Shown: one piece after another, positions 13,143-61,962 of the stretch
How the letters are laid out: every line of letters begins with the position of its first letter
Position numbering within the stretch: the first letter of the stretch is position 1
Source: an uncultured Alphaproteobacteria bacterium
GTDB taxonomy: Bacteria > Pseudomonadota > Alphaproteobacteria > Rhizobiales > Xanthobacteraceae
Assembly (NCBI GenBank): GCA_963790975.1
Contig: CAWBQV010000005.1
Span: forward strand, 124,948 to 188,947
DNA: 64,000 nt
Reading direction: 5' to 3'
Position numbers and translations under genes: made by a program
The notes under the pieces: model-generated
What the model was told of the DNA's origin: nothing
The model's database searches: none
Seen by the model: only the letters and a program-made list of their open reading frames with translations

Positions 13143-13493
13143 TCAGCCGCGGCTTTCGTAGAAATCGCGCGGCATGCACTGGCGTGCCGTTCGCTCCGGC
13201 TTGCCGATATTCGTCGGCGTTTTTCGTAAAATCTTCTGGCGCGTCTCCCACTGCGTCGCGGGCGGCACGCTTTTGAGCGCGCGCTTGAGACAATGGTTCG
13301 GATCGCGACGGCAGGCGCGCAGGCGCCGGCACATCTTCATCCGGCAACGCAGCCACAGCGCAAAGGCGTCGCAATAGCGCCGCTGCTGCCGCGCCCGTTC
13401 CGCCGCATAGCGTTTGGCATAGTCCGCCAGCGCGCGTTTTGGCTTCGCCGTTATTGCCGCCTCACTTGAACGCGTTCCTTGGCGCGTCCGCAT
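13143..13493 (-). CDS. Cys/Arg-rich small protein, paralog of 60101..60454
   Basis: GGAGGA Shine-Dalgarno before ATG 13493. The 40-aa core RRYCDAFALWLRCRMKMCRRLRACRRDPNHCLKRALKSVP aligns without gaps to the second copy (20/40 identical, 5 conserved Cys). Confidence 0.5.
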   Translation of the reverse strand: MRTRQGTRSSEAAITAKPKRALADYAKRYAAERARQQRRYCDAFALWLRCRMKMCRRLRACRRDPNHCLKRALKSVPPATQWETRQKILRKTPTNIGKPERTARQCMPRDFYESRG

Positions 13494-13534: not shown

Positions 13535-13685
13535 GTCACCACCGGGCACAGCCGTTCGCTGAACGGCGTCGCTTCGCTCGCCTATGCCGGTGGTCCATGC
13601 TGACGTGACGCAACGCCAGCCATTCCTAATTTTGTTTCGGCCTCTTCGCCGCATGGATTGCCGGGTCAAGCCCGGCAATGACGAA
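13535..13685. repeat. two-hairpin composite repeat, copy with a 40-nt insertion in hairpin A
   Basis: GTCACCACCGGG (13535-13546) and CCGGTGGTCCATGCTGAC (13587-13604) are split by a 40-nt insert with its own hairpin GCCGTTC/GAACGGC. The unit ends with the 33-mer ATGGATTGCCGGGTCAAGCCCGGCAATGACGAA (13653-13685). Confidence 0.8.
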
Positions 13686-13706
13686 GAAGAAGGAACGGAC
13701 GAAAGA

Positions 13707-14147
13707 GAAGGAAGCGGAACGCCGGCAGGCGCAGTATTTCATGGCCCGCACGCAAGCGGCGTGCGGGGTGCACCACGGAAGAGGCGGCTTGCGCCGCCCT
13801 CCGCTTGCGGGCGCGCTCACCTGCCGACGTTCCACCACGGTTTTCGCCAGGGAGACTCTCGTCCCCGAGGCTCAGCTCCGGGCCAGGCTTCTCGGAACAC
13901 GGCGTGGCGGGGGTTACTCCGCCGGCGCCGCGCCCGGTTGCAGCGAAGCACCCCGCATGCCGGTCATAGTGCCGGCAGGCATGATGCCCGGGCCGCCCGA
14001 GTGCAGGGCTGATGAGGCCATGCCCGCGGGACACCGCACCCGCCCCATTCCGTCCGGCATCACCCGGACGGTGTCCTATCGGGCAGGATTTGATTCGGTC
14101 ATTTTGTCACCGAAACGGTGACCGACGTCAACGAGAATGTGACGATA
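13707..14147. other. conserved hairpin-dense noncoding module, copy 1 (candidate structured RNA; strand unknown)
   Basis: Collinear nucleotide similarity to 60847-61295 with conserved stems, variable loops, non-3n indels and a compensatory base-pair change. No credible ORF. Confidence 0.4.
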
Positions 14148-14289
14148 CTTTTCCGGGCGATTGGCCTGCACTTTGGGAAAACTGACAGGCCGACCCGATC
14201 CGGTGACAAAAAAGGGGGTGCCGCCACTGGTAACAACGGGCGGCGATATCCTGATTCAGTCAAGCGCAAGGACAATCGCCATTTGACTC

Positions 14290-14382
14290 GTCACCACCGG
14301 GCTTGACCCGGTGGTCCATGCTGACTCGCCGAACGGGCGGGATTGGCGCATGGATTGCCGGGTCAAGCCCGGCAATGACGAA
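14290..14382. repeat. two-hairpin composite repeat unit
   Basis: GTCACCACCGGGCTTGACCCGGTGGTCCATGCTGACTCGCC followed by the identical 33-mer ATGGATTGCCGGGTCAAGCCCGGCAATGACGAA (14350-14382). Confidence 0.85.
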
Positions 14383-14441
14383 TGAAAAAGTGCCGCGCGA
14401 CCTCGTGCGGGCTGTTGGTTCTGTCCGGCTACCTGGGCGTC

Positions 14442-14534
14442 GTCACCACCGGGCTTGACCCGGTGGTCCATGCTGACTCGCCGGACGCGCGGCATTGCCA
14501 TATGGATTGCCGGGTCAAGCCCGGCAATGACGAA
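14442..14534. repeat. two-hairpin composite repeat unit abutting the GIY-YIG stop codon
   Basis: Same 41-nt hairpin-A segment as 14290. Identical 33-mer at 14502-14534. Confidence 0.85.
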
Positions 14535-14822
14535 TCAGACAATCTCGTCCCATAGATCGCGCCAGTCGGGATTCGTCGAGCGGATCAGGTCGATCTTCCA
14601 CCGGCGCGACCAATGTTTGATATTCTTCTCGCGTTGGATTGCGGCGATCGCCGTTGCGTGCTGCTCGTAATAGACGAGCATTTTGACATTGTGTGCATTC
14701 GTAAATCCTTCGACTGCACCTTCGCGATGCTCATAGACGCGGCGAACGAGATCCCGAGTCATGCCGACATAGAGCGTTCCGCGCGGCCGGCTTGCCAATA
14801 TATAGACCCAATAGCTTCTCAT
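14535..14822 (-). CDS. small GIY-YIG nuclease family protein
   Basis: MRSYWVYILASRPRGTLYVGMTRDLVRRVYEHREG...MLVYYE shows the GIY-(10)-YVG, Arg and Glu motifs. The longer track ORF start (14861) lies inside the repeat and is rejected. Confidence 0.85.
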   Translation of the reverse strand: MRSYWVYILASRPRGTLYVGMTRDLVRRVYEHREGAVEGFTNAHNVKMLVYYEQHATAIAAIQREKNIKHWSRRWKIDLIRSTNPDWRDLWDEIV

Positions 14823-14835
14823 GCCGGCCGTCAGC

Positions 14836-14868
14836 ATGGATTGCCGGGTCAAGCCCGGCAATGACGAA
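14836..14868. repeat. fourth identical copy of the 33-nt hairpin-B element
   Basis: ATGGATTGCCGGGTCAAGCCCGGCAATGACGAA, same orientation as the other three, 14 nt upstream of the GIY-YIG start. Confidence 0.85.
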
Positions 14869-42952: not shown

Positions 42953-43200
42953 GAAGCCGCAGAATAATCGAGAATAATTCCGCCGGCCGTTACCGACTTG
43001 CCATCGCGGAATTCCCGGCTTATATCGAATCCGTTCTGGGGATGGAGTTCCCCCGTAACCGCCATTCGGCTGATGACTCCTGCCGGGCGCTTGGCGTCGG
43101 TAGGAGTTTTCTTTTGCTCCCACTGTCTCCAAGACTGTTTATGTGACCGTTCGAAACGGGCGCGAGCCCTGTTGCGAGCGATCGCGCCGCGCATAGGAGA

Positions 43201-58220: not shown

Positions 58221-60014
58221 TCACTTCACCGGCGCGGCATCGGGAATGAAGCGCTGGCCGAACACCGGCTCCTTATACGGCGTCGGCGGCAATTCCCAGG
58301 CGCCGGTCGACGGCGGGCGCACTTCGGCGTCGACATGCACGTCGATGACGAACGGCTTGTTGGCCTTGACCGCGTGCTCGAGTGCGCCGCGGAAATCCTG
58401 CGACTTGGTCACGGTCAGCGCGTCGACGCCGGTGGCCTTGGCCCAGGCGGCAAAATCCGGATTGAACGGTTTGTTGTTGGGGCCTTCATGGAACATGGTG
58501 CCGTATTCGCGGCCGCCGAACATGCCGAGCTGAATGTCGCGGATCGAGACCCAGCCGAAATTGTTCCAGATCACCCACACCACCGGGATGTTGTATTCGA
58601 CCGCGGTGCACAGCACGTGCGGCACCATGGTGAAGCAGCCGTCGCCGGTGACCGCGACCACCGGCCGGTCCGGCGCCGCAAGTTTTGCGCCGAGCGCGCC
58701 GCAGGCGCCAAAACCCATGGCGGAAAAGCCCCAGGAGTTGAGCATGGTCTGCGGCTTCCGCGCGTTCCAGAACTGCATGTACCAGTTGTGGCTGACGCCG
58801 ACGTCGCAGCAGATGATGGCGTCCGGCGGCAGCACCGCCTGGCAATCGGCGACCACCCGCTCGGGCCGCAGCGGCGAAGTGTGCAGCTCGAAATTCGGAG
58901 CCACGAATTTTTCCCATTCGGCGCGCCATTTGGCGATGTCGGCGAGCCATTCCTTGGTGGCGCCGAGTTTTACCCGGCGGCGTTCGAGTTCGGCGAGAAG
59001 CTGGCGCAGAAACGTGCGCGCGTCGGCAAGAAGGCCGAGGTCCGGCGGATAATTGCGGCCGAGCTCGGCCGGATCGACGTCGGCATGGATGAGTTTGGTG
59101 TGCGGGAAATTCCACGAATAGCCCGGCATCCATGACGAGGCCGAGCGGTCGTCGAAGCGTGCGCCGATGGCAATGACGAGATCGGCGCGGCGGCCGGCTT
59201 CGTTGGCGGGAAACGCGCCGTTACGCCCGATGAAGCCGAGCGACAGCGCATCGGTCATGTCGAGGCAGCCCATGCCGTTGGGCGAGGAGATCACCGGGAT
59301 GCCGAGCTTTTTGGCGAACTCGGTCAGTTCGCGGCTCGCTTCCGACAGCGTCACGCCGTGGCCGATGAAGAGCACCGGCCGCTGTGCGGCAAGGATCATA
59401 TCGAGCGCGCAGGAAATCTCCTCGGGCGAGGCGCCGCTGCGTTGTGCGTTGAGCGGCGGCGCCGCCGGCGGCAGCTCGACCTCGTCCTCCTCCTGGAACA
59501 CGTTGAACGGCACGTCGATATTCACCGGTCCGGGCCGGCCCGACAGCATCGTCGTCATCGCCTGGCGCAACGCGAGCGGCAGCATGTCGACGCGGGTCGG
59601 CTGAAAGCTGCGCTTGACCACCGGACGAATGACATTGACGAAATCGGCCTGGAAATGCCGGTTGATCTCCTGGAACGGGCTGCGGTTGAACTGCGACGTC
59701 GGCACGTTGGCGGTGATGGCCAGAAGCGCCGAGGAATCCGTCAGCGCACAGGCGAGCGGCATCACGATATTGGCGGAGCCCGGCCCGCACGAGGTCAGCG
59801 TCGCCACCGGCTTGTGGCGCACGCGGAAATAGGCGTCCGCCATATGAGCCGCGACCTGCTCGTGGCGCGGCGAAACGAGCTTGATGCGGTCACGCGCCTG
59901 GTAGAGCGGATCGAGCATGCCGACATTGCCATGCCCGCAAATGCCGAAGACATAGGGAATGTCGTTCTCGATCAGATATTCGGTGATCAGTTCGGCGCCC
60001 TTCATGCGAGGCAT
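58221..60014 (-). CDS. thiamine-diphosphate-dependent enzyme (acetolactate synthase large-subunit-like)
   Basis: AGGAG Shine-Dalgarno before ATG 60014. MPRMKGAELITEYLIENDIPYVFGICGHGNVG PYR domain. GDGCFTMVPHVLCTAVEYNIPVVWVIWNN ThDP motif. The longer track ORF start (60371) is rejected. Confidence 0.85.
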   Translation of the reverse strand: MPRMKGAELITEYLIENDIPYVFGICGHGNVGMLDPLYQARDRIKLVSPRHEQVAAHMADAYFRVRHKPVATLTSCGPGSANIVMPLACALTDSSALLAITANVPTSQFNRSPFQEINRHFQADFVNVIRPVVKRSFQPTRVDMLPLALRQAMTTMLSGRPGPVNIDVPFNVFQEEDEVELPPAAPPLNAQRSGASPEEISCALDMILAAQRPVLFIGHGVTLSEASRELTEFAKKLGIPVISSPNGMGCLDMTDALSLGFIGRNGAFPANEAGRRADLVIAIGARFDDRSASSWMPGYSWNFPHTKLIHADVDPAELGRNYPPDLGLLADARTFLRQLLAELERRRVKLGATKEWLADIAKWRAEWEKFVAPNFELHTSPLRPERVVADCQAVLPPDAIICCDVGVSHNWYMQFWNARKPQTMLNSWGFSAMGFGACGALGAKLAAPDRPVVAVTGDGCFTMVPHVLCTAVEYNIPVVWVIWNNFGWVSIRDIQLGMFGGREYGTMFHEGPNNKPFNPDFAAWAKATGVDALTVTKSQDFRGALEHAVKANKPFVIDVHVDAEVRPPSTGAWELPPTPYKEPVFGQRFIPDAAPVK

Positions 60015-60100
60015 CGTCACTCCTGTCGGCTCACGGTCTTTCCCGCGGCCCGTTTCTAGCACGGTCCAAACCGTCATTGCGAGCGCGACTAATCGCACAA

Positions 60101-60454
60101 TTACGACTCGGCTTGAGTTTTGGCGCGGGTTTTCTGATTCTTCGCATCGTGCAGGCAAAGCGAATAGTGCGCATAGTGGTGGGCCATTCGGATGAAGCGG
60201 TCGGCATTTGCGGACGCCTCGGCCAGCATCCGATCGTGCGCGGCAACGCCGGCGTCGTACGGAACGCTCTGCCATCGGCTTTGCAGACAAGCGCCCTGAT
60301 CCCCCCTGCATCGCCTGGCGCTGCGGCACGGCCTGTACCGGCAGTCGCGCCAGAACGCGAACATGTCGCAATATTTCCGCGCGACGATCGCGCAGGCGGC
60401 GTCATGGCGCGCCTGCCATTCGTGCGGCGACAGCTTCTCTTCGCTTTTGCTCAT
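60101..60454 (-). CDS. Cys/Arg-rich small protein, paralog of 13143..13493
   Basis: AAGGAG Shine-Dalgarno before ATG 60454. Core RKYCDMFAFWRDCRYRPCRSARRCRGDQGACLQSRWQSVP shares the C-x8-C-x4-C-x5-C-x6-C pattern with the first copy. Confidence 0.5.
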   Translation of the reverse strand: MSKSEEKLSPHEWQARHDAACAIVARKYCDMFAFWRDCRYRPCRSARRCRGDQGACLQSRWQSVPYDAGVAAHDRMLAEASANADRFIRMAHHYAHYSLCLHDAKNQKTRAKTQAES

Positions 60455-60846
60455 GGCAATAGTTCTCCTTCTCGCGATGCATTTCTTCATCCCGCCCCGC
60501 GCTAGCGGGAAAGCCACGTCGAAAACAGCGTTTGGAGATGACGAATTTTTCAAGGTAGGGATTGGCATCGTTAGCCCGTCACAGCGAGGCATTGAAGCCG
60601 CATTTTGGCTGGCGAGGTAGAGGCGAGCCATTCGACGTAACGCATCCTGAGTACGCACTTTCGTCCGTGGTTCGGTGCGGGGGGCGGGAAGGCCACAATC
60701 CGATTCAGGCGTCGCGTCGAGTGGCCTACTTTAGCGGATATCGCTATACCCCCCCGCTATCGCGGGGGCGGATAATTCTTCACCGTTCTCGCGACGCATT
60801 CGCGCCCGAGGTTTTGCAAAAGGAAATTTCAAGAACCTCCCAAAAA

Positions 60847-61295
60847 GAAGGGAGGCGAAGCGCCGAAAGGCGCATCCAACCATTGGCCGCGTCAGGGTGA
60901 CGGGCGTTGCCGCCCATCCAACCGTCGCCGCGGCGCGCGTCCAGCGGGACGCGCTCGCCTTTCGGCGCTCCACCGCGGCTCTCGCCGGAGGCTTTTGGCC
61001 CTACTGGCTCAGCTCCAGGCCATGCTTCCTGGGACGTGGATCCAGCGGGCGTTACCCGCCATCACCTGTCCCAGTCCAGGGACAGCACCTCCCGCGCCGG
61101 CCGTAGTACCGGCGTGAATGATGCCCGGAGCCGCCCGGGCGCGGCTCGTAACGCCGCGCGCGGGGACCGCCCTCGTTCCACTTTCGAAAGTACCCTCGCG
61201 AAAGTACCCTCGCGAAAGGCCCCTCCGTGAACGAGATGGGGGATTGTATCCGATATGGTGACGGATGTCAAGAGAGTGTCACTAATAAAGTGACA
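60847..61295. other. conserved hairpin-dense noncoding module, copy 2 (candidate structured RNA; strand unknown)
   Basis: Collinear with 13707-14147. It contains the GNRA-capped stem GCGCC-GAAA-GGCGC, a GCGGG-CGTTA-CCCGC hairpin, a GCCGG-8nt-CCGGC hairpin and a 3' GTCAC/GTGAC hairpin. No credible ORF. Confidence 0.4.
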
Positions 61296-61306
61296 AGGCG
61301 CAACCC

Positions 61307-61947
61307 GTAGGATGGGTAGAGCGTAGCGAAACCCATCATCTTTCTATCGGCCCATCATCGCTCCCCGAAACCGCGCTCATTGTCCACCGCATCTCCCGCC
61401 CAGTCGAGCGGATAGACGCCAAGCCGCACCATGCGATGAAACGACGAATACGGCCAATCTCTCACTCGGCTGACATGTCCATGCTTCACCGGATTGAAAA
61501 GAATGTAATCGACGTGCCGCGCGAGATCCGCTTCGTCGCGCAACGTGTGCTCCCAATAGCGCCGCTGCCAGATGCCGCGCTCGGCTTTGCCGGCGCGGCT
61601 CTCTGAAATCCGCTCGCCTGCCGGCAGAGCGCGGGAGAATGCCGATTTGATCTGCCGCCAGCGCAGCGCAAAGTCAGCATCATCTTGCGGCAATGTCCAA
61701 ACCGCATGCAGATGATCGGGCAGGACAACGATCGCGTCGATTTCGAACGGATGGCGCCGCCGCACTTCACGGAATGCTTGGCGCAGCAAATCGATGTAAT
61801 CGGTAAGCAGACGCAGCCGCCGTTCGGCGAGATTTACCGTGAAGAAAAAGCTGCCGCCGGAAATAAAATTGCGTCGATAGTTGGTCATCGCCTCAGCATT
61901 GCAAAACCGCCGAGGCGATGGGTTTCGCTTCGCTCTACCCATCCTAC
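61307..61947 (-). mobile_element. REP-RAYT-REP unit (REPtron-like)
   Basis: GTAGGATGGGTAGAGCGTAGCGAAACCCATC (61307-61337) and its inverted copy GATGGGTTTCGCTTCGCTCTACCCATCCTAC (61917-61947) flank the transposase gene. Confidence 0.75.
61355..61888 (-). CDS. REP-associated tyrosine transposase (RAYT, IS200/IS605-like Y1 HUH enzyme)
   Basis: MTNYRRNFISGGSFFFTVNL...VVLPDHLHAVW (HUH motif)...RGIWQRRYWEH...HVDYILFNPVKHG (catalytic Tyr region). Start at the internal Met 61888; the longer track ORF runs into the REP. Confidence 0.8.
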   Translation of the reverse strand: MTNYRRNFISGGSFFFTVNLAERRLRLLTDYIDLLRQAFREVRRRHPFEIDAIVVLPDHLHAVWTLPQDDADFALRWRQIKSAFSRALPAGERISESRAGKAERGIWQRRYWEHTLRDEADLARHVDYILFNPVKHGHVSRVRDWPYSSFHRMVRLGVYPLDWAGDAVDNERGFGER

Positions 61948-61962
61948 GGGCTGCGCGCCTTT

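Follow-up and report, generated by a model that had tools for sequence, protein, structure and literature searches.

Several classes of large bacterial RNA with complex folds, namely RNase P, tmRNA, OLE, ROOL, GOLLD and the HEARO/omega RNAs, have each led to new biochemistry. To our knowledge, new classes of this kind are rare. The subject of this report is a noncoding element that occurs twice in a 64,000-nt stretch of DNA (the window) from an uncultured alphaproteobacterium of the Xanthobacteraceae (contig CAWBQV010000005.1, positions 124,948 to 188,947), at 13707-14147 (copy 1) and at 60847-61295 (copy 2). That the element is a structured RNA gene on the minus strand is almost certain. On balance, its product is best explained as a large, pseudoknotted, free-standing noncoding RNA (ncRNA) that would act in trans, with a cysteine-rich open reading frame (ORF) as an optional downstream companion.

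Closest Described RNAs

Orphan RNAs with elaborate folds have been treated as a group under the name “ornate” RNAs (PMC12286853). These appear to be the closest functional analogues of the RNA described here, especially OLE with its adjoining partner gene oapA; neither sequence nor structure is shared with them. Like OLE, the present RNA is a large multi-helix ncRNA defined by covariation, with conserved junction nucleotides and variable peripheral arms, and at linked loci a small uncharacterised protein gene lies directly downstream on the same strand. However, it is about 400 nt long compared to about 600 nt for OLE, has no Rfam match, and is present in multiple copies, most of them without the protein gene. 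The protein is soluble-looking, basic, cysteine-rich and predicted to be all-alpha, while the OLE partner is a membrane protein. The hosts also differ, being Alphaproteobacteria in this case and anaerobic or extremophilic Firmicutes for OLE.

ROOL, GOLLD and raiA are likewise orphan bacterial RNAs that fold in complex ways, have transcription units of their own and carry GNRA-type loops, and some of them are multi-copy. The RNA described here is smaller than ROOL and GOLLD. It differs from all three in having no Rfam match and no prophage or tRNA association, and in carrying a conserved operator-bearing promoter and a downstream hairpin (H2, described below). The HEARO/omega RNAs (IscB, IsrB) resemble it as multi-copy structured RNAs of 200-400 nt that contain a pseudoknot and often have no adjoining ORF. 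In contrast to them, it has no IscB, IsrB, TnpB or TnpA-type partner beside it, no Rfam HEARO match and no guide-like variable end.

CrcZ/CrcY and RsmX/Y/Z, which are protein sponges, and the alphaproteobacterial small RNAs AbcR and alpha-r14 are multi-copy regulatory RNA families that also have several paralogues per genome and a shared promoter architecture, a likeness that suggests one regulon. They consist simply of short hairpins or motifs in an array, whereas the RNA here folds into three domains in a closed architecture, with long-range helices and invariant junctions. Compared to CrcZ/CrcY and RsmX/Y/Z, no repeated sponge motif is evident in it. A CsrA/Rsm-type sponge was considered by eye and rejected, as the GGA motifs sit inside covarying helices.

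Rfam 15 contains 4227 covariance models, including those for RNase P, tmRNA, 6S, SRP, HEARO, OLE, ROOL, GOLLD, raiA, riboswitches and Rhizobiales/Bradyrhizobium small RNAs (sRNAs). At the gathering threshold, the only match in the whole window is a fluoride riboswitch. When both copies are searched at E ≤ 10, the only matches are sub-threshold chance matches (miRNA models and the like) that lie far below gathering. At E ≤ 1, nothing falls on the RNA at seven loci with other members, bringing the members tested to nine altogether. ARAGORN finds no tRNA or tmRNA, and literature searches gave no description of the RNA family.

Two Diverged Copies of One Element

The first-pass annotation, which was made from the sequence by a model, had reported a conserved, structured, noncoding element present twice in the window, and this holds. 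Aligned by MAFFT and blastn, the copies are about 70% identical over the central ~230 nt (blastn 71% over 229 nt, E 5e-18). They have in common the exact 23-mer GGCTCAGCTCCRGGCCAKGCTTC, which none of 100 shuffles matches. An nhmmer profile finds exactly two copies in the window, at 61239-60842 (E 4e-90) and 14095-13701 (E 4e-58), both on the minus strand. Each adjoins a cysteine-rich ORF in the same order, as had been reported, and the two ORFs are homologous (33% identity, E 1e-12). This means that the noncoding module is more conserved at the nucleotide level than the protein of the adjoining gene, which indicates that selection acts on the noncoding sequence itself.

Fold and Covariation

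The fold was derived with RNAalifold from an alignment of 62 intact copies (A4) and, with one hairpin added, comprises 85 pairs in 12 helices. Its parts in the window are as follows.

60847-61236, minus strand: structured RNA of copy 2, from the predicted start (~61236) to the end of the 3′-tail pseudoknot strand
13701-14095, minus strand: structured RNA of copy 1, a paralogue with the same helices (P1 14081-14087/14039-14045; P9 13818-13836/13713-13731)
61172-61235, minus strand: P1 domain, made of P1 (61229-61235/61172-61178; 5 of 6 pairs compensatory), an internal loop and hairpin P1a
61185-61212, minus strand: tandem duplication within P1a of copy 2, absent from orthologues (per-sequence folds)
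60975-61170, minus strand: central domain, closed by P2 (61166-61170/60975-60979)
61153-61164/61134-61145, minus strand: P3, central domain
61123-61133/61010-61020, minus strand: P4, central domain
61109-61116/61093-61100, minus strand: P5, central domain
61090-61092/61080-61082, minus strand: P5a, a small hairpin, central domain
61065-61074/61029-61039, minus strand: P6, central domain
61055-61059/61045-61049, minus strand: P7, central domain
61006-61008/60984-60986, minus strand: P8, central domain
60854-60974, minus strand: 3′ domain, closed by the 19-bp helix P9 (60956-60974/60854-60872)
60948-60952/60937-60941, minus strand: P9a, a variable arm of the 3′ domain
60928-60933/60887-60892, minus strand: P9b, a variable arm of the 3′ domain, GCAA-capped in copy 2
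60847-60852, minus strand: 3′-tail strand CCCUUC of the pseudoknot, which pairs with GGAGGG (61221-61226) in the P1 internal loop

In A4, 98.2% of the 5262 cells hold standard pairs compared to 91.8% in column shuffles, and none of 500 shuffles reaches the observed value. When the partners are slid by 1-3 columns, only 39-44% of cells are paired. Double-sided (compensatory) changes are found in 39 pairs, compared to 24 in shuffles and 8-14 in the slid controls. The fold also holds in a set of 140 distinct full-length copies, where 97.9% of 11,826 cells are paired. In this set, G-U or U-G occupies 1297 cells and A-C or C-A only 70, an excess that fixes the strand as minus. In copy 1, C-A mismatches between two GCGCC-containing segments on the plus strand become G-U pairs on the minus strand.

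Compensatory change is found throughout the fold. P4 was invariant in the first copy set because the search pattern used it; among the 140 copies, its pair 135/319 is UG in 55, UA in 48 and CG in 37. Pair 171/183 of P5a (GGGA..UCCC) occurs as all four Watson-Crick types (GC 68, UA 34, CG 15, AU 8). The long-range helix P9 (helix 10) has compensatory changes in 8 of its 19 pairs, with pair 370/568 found as GC in 32 copies and AU in 29, and helices 11 and 12 have them in 5/5 and 4/6 pairs. The junction nucleotides are nearly invariant across the family, while the peripheral arms vary in length (P1a, the P3 loop, an optional 10-75-nt insertion in P6, P9a and P9b). Several of these arms are capped by GNRA-type loops, seen in the alignments as GCAA, GCGA and GUAA.

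The P1 internal loop (..RAGGR..) pairs with the pyrimidine tail that follows P9 to form the pseudoknot. Cognate duplexes average -8.9 kcal/mol compared to -6.4 kcal/mol for non-cognate ones (2.5 better), and none of 300 permutations reaches the observed mean. Covarying examples include CCGAGGGG/CCCCUCGG, CGAAGGG/CCCUUCG, GGAGGG/CCCUCC and AAAAGGA/UCCUUUU. An earlier candidate, in which GGGAGGUG (A4 columns 170-177) would pair with the tail CGCCUCCC, was rejected; it has many mismatches and no covariation, and it competes with a well-supported extension of P9.

Every stem and repeat that the first-pass annotation listed at 60847-61295 can be located where it was placed. These include the stem GCGCGTCC/GGACGCGC, the pairs GCCGG/CCGGC and GCGCGGC/GCCGCGC and the long-range pairing CTCGTTC...GAACGAG, and four of the listed pairings are P1, P3, P5 and P9a, each backed by compensatory changes. 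The tandem repeat is a 14-nt duplication, CGAAAGTACCCTCG twice (61185-61198 and 61199-61212), which lengthens P1a and is indeed unique to copy 2. Two proposed local hairpins, on the other hand, are ruled out as parts of the conserved fold by the covariation data. The first, GCGCC-GAAA-GGCGC, is present as sequence at 60860-60873, but its supposed GNRA cap reads UUUC in the minus-strand RNA, and the segment is the 3′ strand of the long-range helix P9 (60854-60872 with 60956-60974) instead of a local stem. The second, CTGTCCC/GGGACAG, has no support from covariation and is not conserved, and its bases are used by the GGGA..UCCC hairpin and P6. The first-pass annotation had recognised neither the strand nor the promoter and operator, and it had likewise missed the long-range helices, the pseudoknot and H2.

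These data bear on two readings that do not involve RNA. An unannotated protein-coding gene, or the remnant of one, might be suspected from ORFs of 69-147 aa that overlap both copies. Such ORFs are expected in GC-rich DNA, however, and the conserved blocks lie in different frames in the two copies, the variable arms carry indels that are not multiples of three, and in a set of 139 copies at most 24% keep any given frame open. Frame analysis already refutes a coding origin, and its probability is negligible.

The element could instead be a repeat that functions as DNA, like a repetitive extragenic palindrome (REP) or bacterial interspersed mosaic element (BIME), a miniature inverted-repeat transposable element (MITE) or a protein-binding array, with no role for RNA. 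It is GC-rich and rich in palindromes, including the GTCNC palindromes of the promoter region, and it is intergenic and lies beside REPs and the gene for a REP-associated tyrosine transposase (RAYT). A DNA-level repeat does not explain why 85 pairs are kept by compensatory changes, some of them in long-range helices and a pseudoknot, or why a promoter lies at a constant distance, and the excess of G-U over A-C is an asymmetry not expected from the symmetry of double-stranded DNA. REPs and BIMEs are imperfect palindromes of about 20-40 nt with a 5′ GTAG-type motif, found in clusters and as inverted pairs flanking a RAYT gene; the ~450-nt module far exceeds REPs in length and complexity and shares no sequence with them. 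MITEs and insertion sequences (IS) are no better a fit, as there are no terminal repeats and no near-identical copies. A DNA-level repeat is therefore already largely refuted and very improbable, and no known repeat family, the explanation that the first-pass annotation had set against its own, accounts for the element.

Promoter and Operator

The sequence immediately upstream of the RNA, in both copies, resembles a regulated promoter.

61271-61243, minus strand: sigma-70-type promoter TTGACA-N17-TACAAT, matching 11 of 12 consensus positions; the sole such site in 60000-61400
61278-61294, no strand assigned: operator-like palindrome O1, GTCAC-N7-GTGAC, read from the sequence; perfect, and 6 nt upstream of the -35 box
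within 61243-61271: O2, an imperfect GTCAC-N7-GATAC, read from the sequence; in the promoter spacer, overlapping the -10 box
14103-14143, minus strand: promoter/operator region of copy 1, with a GTCAC half-site and TTGACG at 14126-14131
14106-14122: palindrome GTCAC-N7-GTGAC of copy 1, which overlaps the spacer and the -10 box

This architecture is conserved. TTGACN-N16-18-TANNNN lies at a constant distance from the RNA core in 37 of 68 aligned copies (exact TTGACA in 32), and most of the remaining 31 lacked upstream sequence as extracted. A GTCNC half-site lies within the spacer in 32 of the 37 promoters, and an upstream GTCNC-N7-GNGAC palindrome is found 4-7 nt before the -35 box in 25 of the 68. 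Because the promoter is bracketed or overlapped by copies of GTCNC-N7-GNGAC, this palindrome is a candidate operator, and a repressor presumably controls transcription. The element thus shows the two marks of a structured ncRNA gene in general, namely covariation supported on one strand and a promoter of its own.

The limits proposed earlier for the module nearly equal the 61236-60847 fold once the promoter and operator are added. What had been taken for the 3′ end of the module is, on the minus strand, its promoter/operator region.

Family Range and Genomic Context

About 200 copies of the RNA were recovered overall, from soil and peat Xanthobacteraceae metagenome-assembled genomes (MAGs) and from metagenomes. 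A first, RNA-first scan with an exact pattern covered one genome from each of 185,579 species and gave 99 loci. Of these, 98 belong to uncultured Xanthobacteraceae, Hyphomicrobiales or unclassified alphaproteobacterial MAGs, and the other is a 2.9-kb contig binned as Stellaceae. A second scan, of metagenomes with a looser pattern and nhmmer confirmation, gave at least 120 loci, and at least 97 RNA loci were confirmed, all from peat or forest soil. Among the 120 matches listed, 23 (all “human gut” contigs included) have no nhmmer match and are false positives of the pattern. They include L118, L122, L128, L130, L131, L134, L135, L142, L144, L160 and L164, as well as L165, L170, L180, L183, L187 and others. 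Many of them have the same match length of 121 nt, so another conserved sequence, probably a gene, appears to fit the degenerate pattern. In the other direction, five distant homologues of the cysteine-rich protein led to five further RNAs that are 1 to more than 3 positions off the first search pattern, which means that the family is broader than either scan shows.

A single MAG may hold up to 7 copies. Copies are 67-92% identical, mostly 70-85%, and are found in unrelated surroundings. Downstream of the RNA, the nearest likely gene shares its strand in 35 cases and lies on the other strand in 33, and in 8 no such gene is present. When the neighbours of 104 loci were clustered (3.5 kb either side), only the cysteine-rich ORF and one syntenic locus, TctC...RNA-ORF-gltX-gltA, which is kept across species, were recurrent. 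No transposase, reverse transcriptase, nuclease, IscB, TnpB or recombinase recurs in these 104 loci. Link to an integration hotspot is not apparent either, as a tRNA or tmRNA gene is present in only 6 of 232 loci, and blastn in distant mode gives no match that would point to a plasmid or phage origin.

Some copies have been damaged. At L004 (1350-3624) the RNA is split close to its 5′ end by an inserted IS1595-family transposase, and 5′ truncation has shortened the copies at L012, L038, L053 and L091. Some of the paralogues are thus pseudogenes.

This distribution may be compared with that of an RNA belonging to a selfish or mobile system, that is, a guide, template or scaffold (omega/HEARO, bridge or retron-like) whose partner is encoded elsewhere and whose many copies reflect mobility. 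The number of copies per MAG, their unrelated contexts, the truncated or IS-interrupted members and the RAYT and REPs adjoining copy 2 are what such a system might produce. However, no cognate enzyme gene recurs beside the RNA, as would be expected for omega RNA/HEARO, bridge RNA or retron msr-msd, and no variable guide-like segment is evident beside the scaffold. The target-site duplications that the first-pass annotation had suggested looking for at the cassette ends were not found, and neither the RNA unit nor the RNA and ORF together are bounded by terminal inverted or direct repeats. The divergence of the paralogues (70-85% identity) indicates that there was no recent burst, one locus is syntenic across species, and there is no match to HEARO or other Rfam families, plasmids or phages. 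A mobile-system RNA is thus improbable, though less so than a DNA-level repeat.

The Cysteine-Rich ORF and Hairpin H2

Downstream of the RNA in the window, on the same strand, lie a hairpin and the cysteine-rich ORF.

60788-60810, minus strand: downstream hairpin H2, CUCGG-GCGC-GAAU-GCGU-C-G-CGAG followed by AAC; conserved, with a covarying inner stem
60484-60785, no strand assigned: insertion of 302 bp that separates H2 from the ORF, bounded by the 15-bp direct repeat TTCTCGCGAYGCATT at 60469-60483 and 60786-60800
60489-60509 and 60753-60773: 21-nt inverted repeats of the 302-bp insertion
60101-60454, minus strand: cysteine-rich ORF of copy 2, 117 aa, with a GGAG ribosome-binding site (RBS) and the conserved core
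13143-13493, minus strand: cysteine-rich ORF of copy 1, 116 aa from the ATG at 13493, open back to 13523 (profile E 1.5e-39)

The protein is basic and has the core Y-C-x2-F-x2-W-x2-C-R-x3-C-R-x4-C-x6-C-L with five invariant cysteines. The copy-2 ORF has 94 homologues, all unnamed, in Xanthobacteraceae-type MAGs and metagenomes, and a profile search gives 371 clusters at 50% identity. No relative is found in Pfam, NCBIfam, PADLOC or a sequence-profile search of the PDB. An AlphaFold2 (AF2) model is all-alpha (pLDDT 84), and Foldseek finds no match to it in the PDB at E ≤ 0.001.

Linkage between the ORF and the RNA runs one way. All 8 loci found through the ORF carry the RNA upstream on the same strand, and the ORF without the RNA was seen at none of the 8. 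At three homologues with context, the module lies 300-700 nt upstream on the strand of the ORF, and gltX and gltA follow the ORF. The reverse is not the case: the ORF accompanies 22 of 83 RNA copies, a count that includes ORF-first and duplicate loci so that the RNA-first fraction is roughly 20%, and in an independent metagenome sample it lies beside 6 of 51. The RNA is thus an autonomous unit and the ORF an optional accessory gene. The two-part cassette proposed earlier stands to this extent, that the pair occurs in at least four genomic contexts (gltX-gltA, DUF4112 and the two window sites) and so has been duplicated or relocated as a unit; it is not obligate, as most RNA copies have no ORF. 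The window holds two ancient paralogous pairs of RNA and ORF, with no sign of transposition.

H2 follows the family pattern CUCGG-RYGC-loop-GCRY-C-G-CGAG-AAC and is found 21-200 nt past P9. In the 834 kb of DNA retrieved, the strict pattern matches 72 times; 68 of these matches follow an RNA on its own strand at a distance of 21-200 nt. Of 159 copies, 131 have a hairpin that resembles H2. The inner stem of H2 covaries (pair 2 is GC in 33, GU in 27 and AU in 21; pair 3 is CG in 73 and UA in 17). REP-like elements often sit between the RNA core and H2. A sigma-54 promoter upstream of H2 (TGGC..TTGCA) was considered by eye and rejected, as its GG-to-GC spacing is a variable 8-9 nt and not 10.

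The 302-bp insertion accounts for the spacer with small repeats that had been noted beside copy 2. Its flanking 15-bp repeats duplicate the 3′ half of H2, and no second copy was found in the window or among the 232 loci; it looks like a lineage-specific, MITE-like insertion. This was the only place where direct and inverted repeats were found together. Short repeats of two families, one GTCACCACCGGGCTTGACCCGGTGGTCCATGCTGAC-like and the other TGGATTGCCGGGTCAAGCCCGGCAATGACG-like, recur several times around copy 1 (13560-13700 and 14280-14560), also between RNA and ORF. At L007, H2 is followed directly by AAGGAGAAACTTTGCC-GTG-AGCAAAAGCGAAGAC, which is an RBS (AAGGAG) and the N-terminus of the cysteine-rich ORF. 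No full ORF is detected at this locus; the ORF has probably decayed, and this layout of H2, RBS and ORF is probably the ancestral one.

Such a layout raises the question of whether the RNA is a cis-regulatory element, a giant riboswitch-like or attenuator-like 5′ leader that would control read-through by alternative pairing of P9, the tail and H2. The RNA precedes the ORF on the same strand in 8/8 loci and H2 directly abuts the RBS at L007. In addition, both P9 strands are palindromic (GCGCC-GAAA-GGCGC and GCGCC-UUUC-GGCGC) and could form local hairpins, and the tail, rich in C and U but poor in G, resembles a Rho-utilisation (rut) site. With palindromic P9 strands, a tail pseudoknot and H2 near the RBS, alternative structures are conceivable, but covariation supports a single fold with the long-range P9. 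An exchange of strands between H2 and P1 was also considered by eye and rejected, since no covariation was seen between the two. Gene location argues against a leader as well: the ORF follows only about 12-20% of copies, and the next gene is as noted above nearly as often on the opposite strand as on the same one. The spacer that separates RNA from ORF can accommodate REP insertions and the 302-bp insertion, and a size of about 400 nt with multi-copy paralogy is unlike known leaders. A cis-regulatory leader is therefore unlikely, although of the rival readings it is the one that deserves most weight.

Proposed Mode of Action

It is somewhat more probable that the RNA acts in trans than that it is a cis leader, because its genomic context is random and several paralogues have the same promoter architecture. 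The free-standing RNA would be transcribed from the strong minus-strand sigma-70-type promoter as a core of about 390 nt, or about 450 nt if transcription runs to H2. The pseudoknot between the P1 internal loop and the 3′ tail would lock the ends of the RNA together. H2, 20-200 nt downstream, may mark the end of the transcript or a processing site, and where the ORF is present it would precede the RBS; the C/U-rich tail is a possible Rho-loading site. The cysteine-rich ORF would be co-transcribed by read-through, and its protein may be a partner of the RNA, or else the repressor of the GTCNC-N7-GNGAC operator. The RNA itself would most likely serve as a subunit or scaffold of a ribonucleoprotein (RNP) or as a regulatory RNA, and its architecture suggests an RNP scaffold or ribozyme-like RNA and not a base-pairing sRNA. 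Confidence in any specific biochemical role is low.

Several points weigh against this proposal. The role in trans, as part of an RNP, is suggested by architecture and genomic independence, and where the transcript starts (~61236) and ends, and hence how long it is, has been predicted from sequence. No canonical intrinsic terminator was found after the RNA, and H2 has no U-tract. Copy 1 has no canonical H2, and its -10 box is weaker (GACAAA), such that the site is not called by a consensus scan. The RNA-first samples were seeded by conserved sequence patterns, so that the conservation of motifs is overestimated family-wide. In MAGs with 6-7 RNA copies, no ORF adjoins those copies, which means that a dedicated partner is not always encoded beside the RNA and may be absent. 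The strict linkage of ORF to RNA and the abutment of H2 on the RBS also fit a role in cis at ORF-bearing loci.

The RNA is rated as a new class, because no match was found in Rfam or in the literature searched and because it differs in the tested properties from REPs and BIMEs, from MITEs and IS, from cis leaders (by orientation) and from guide RNAs. Its function, once known, may prove analogous to that of an existing type, and even then the RNA would be a new structural solution. A wider proposal can be offered tentatively: new “ornate” RNAs and cysteine-rich (metal- or iron-sulphur-binding), all-alpha proteins might together form a novel RNP or ribozyme-like machine, encoded by a repressor-controlled multi-gene regulon in soil and peat Xanthobacteraceae. 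The RNA family is abundant in peat and forest-soil metagenomes. With an RNA of about 400 nt, a 110-aa protein and a 17-bp operator, it offers a testable system from a lineage without a cultured model. It also warns annotators that “intergenic repeats” of this kind are genes.

Neighbouring Features

The left REP beside copy 2 begins about 12 nt past 61295, as first reported. Two inverted REPs (~61300-61340 and 61917-61956; 95% identical over 40 nt) flank the RAYT, an IS200-like Y1 transposase (Pfam Y1_Tnp) encoded at 61355-61942 on the minus strand. The RAYT and its REPs are a separate unit that lies directly upstream of the RNA promoter. A RAYT-like ORF is found within 3 kb of the RNA at only 5 other loci, and 63 of the 68 RNA-first copies used for clustering have none within 3.5 kb.

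Three further observations were made. In a single case, at L020, an RNA copy is followed after about 350 nt by a permuted tmRNA gene of the two-piece type (870-1231). Near copy 1, the ORF at 14535-14861 (minus strand), which begins ...YWVYILASRPRGTLYVGMT..., looks GIY-YIG-like. The fluoride riboswitch (crcB motif) of the window is at 43029-43089 on the plus strand and scores 57.9 bits against a gathering threshold of 34.

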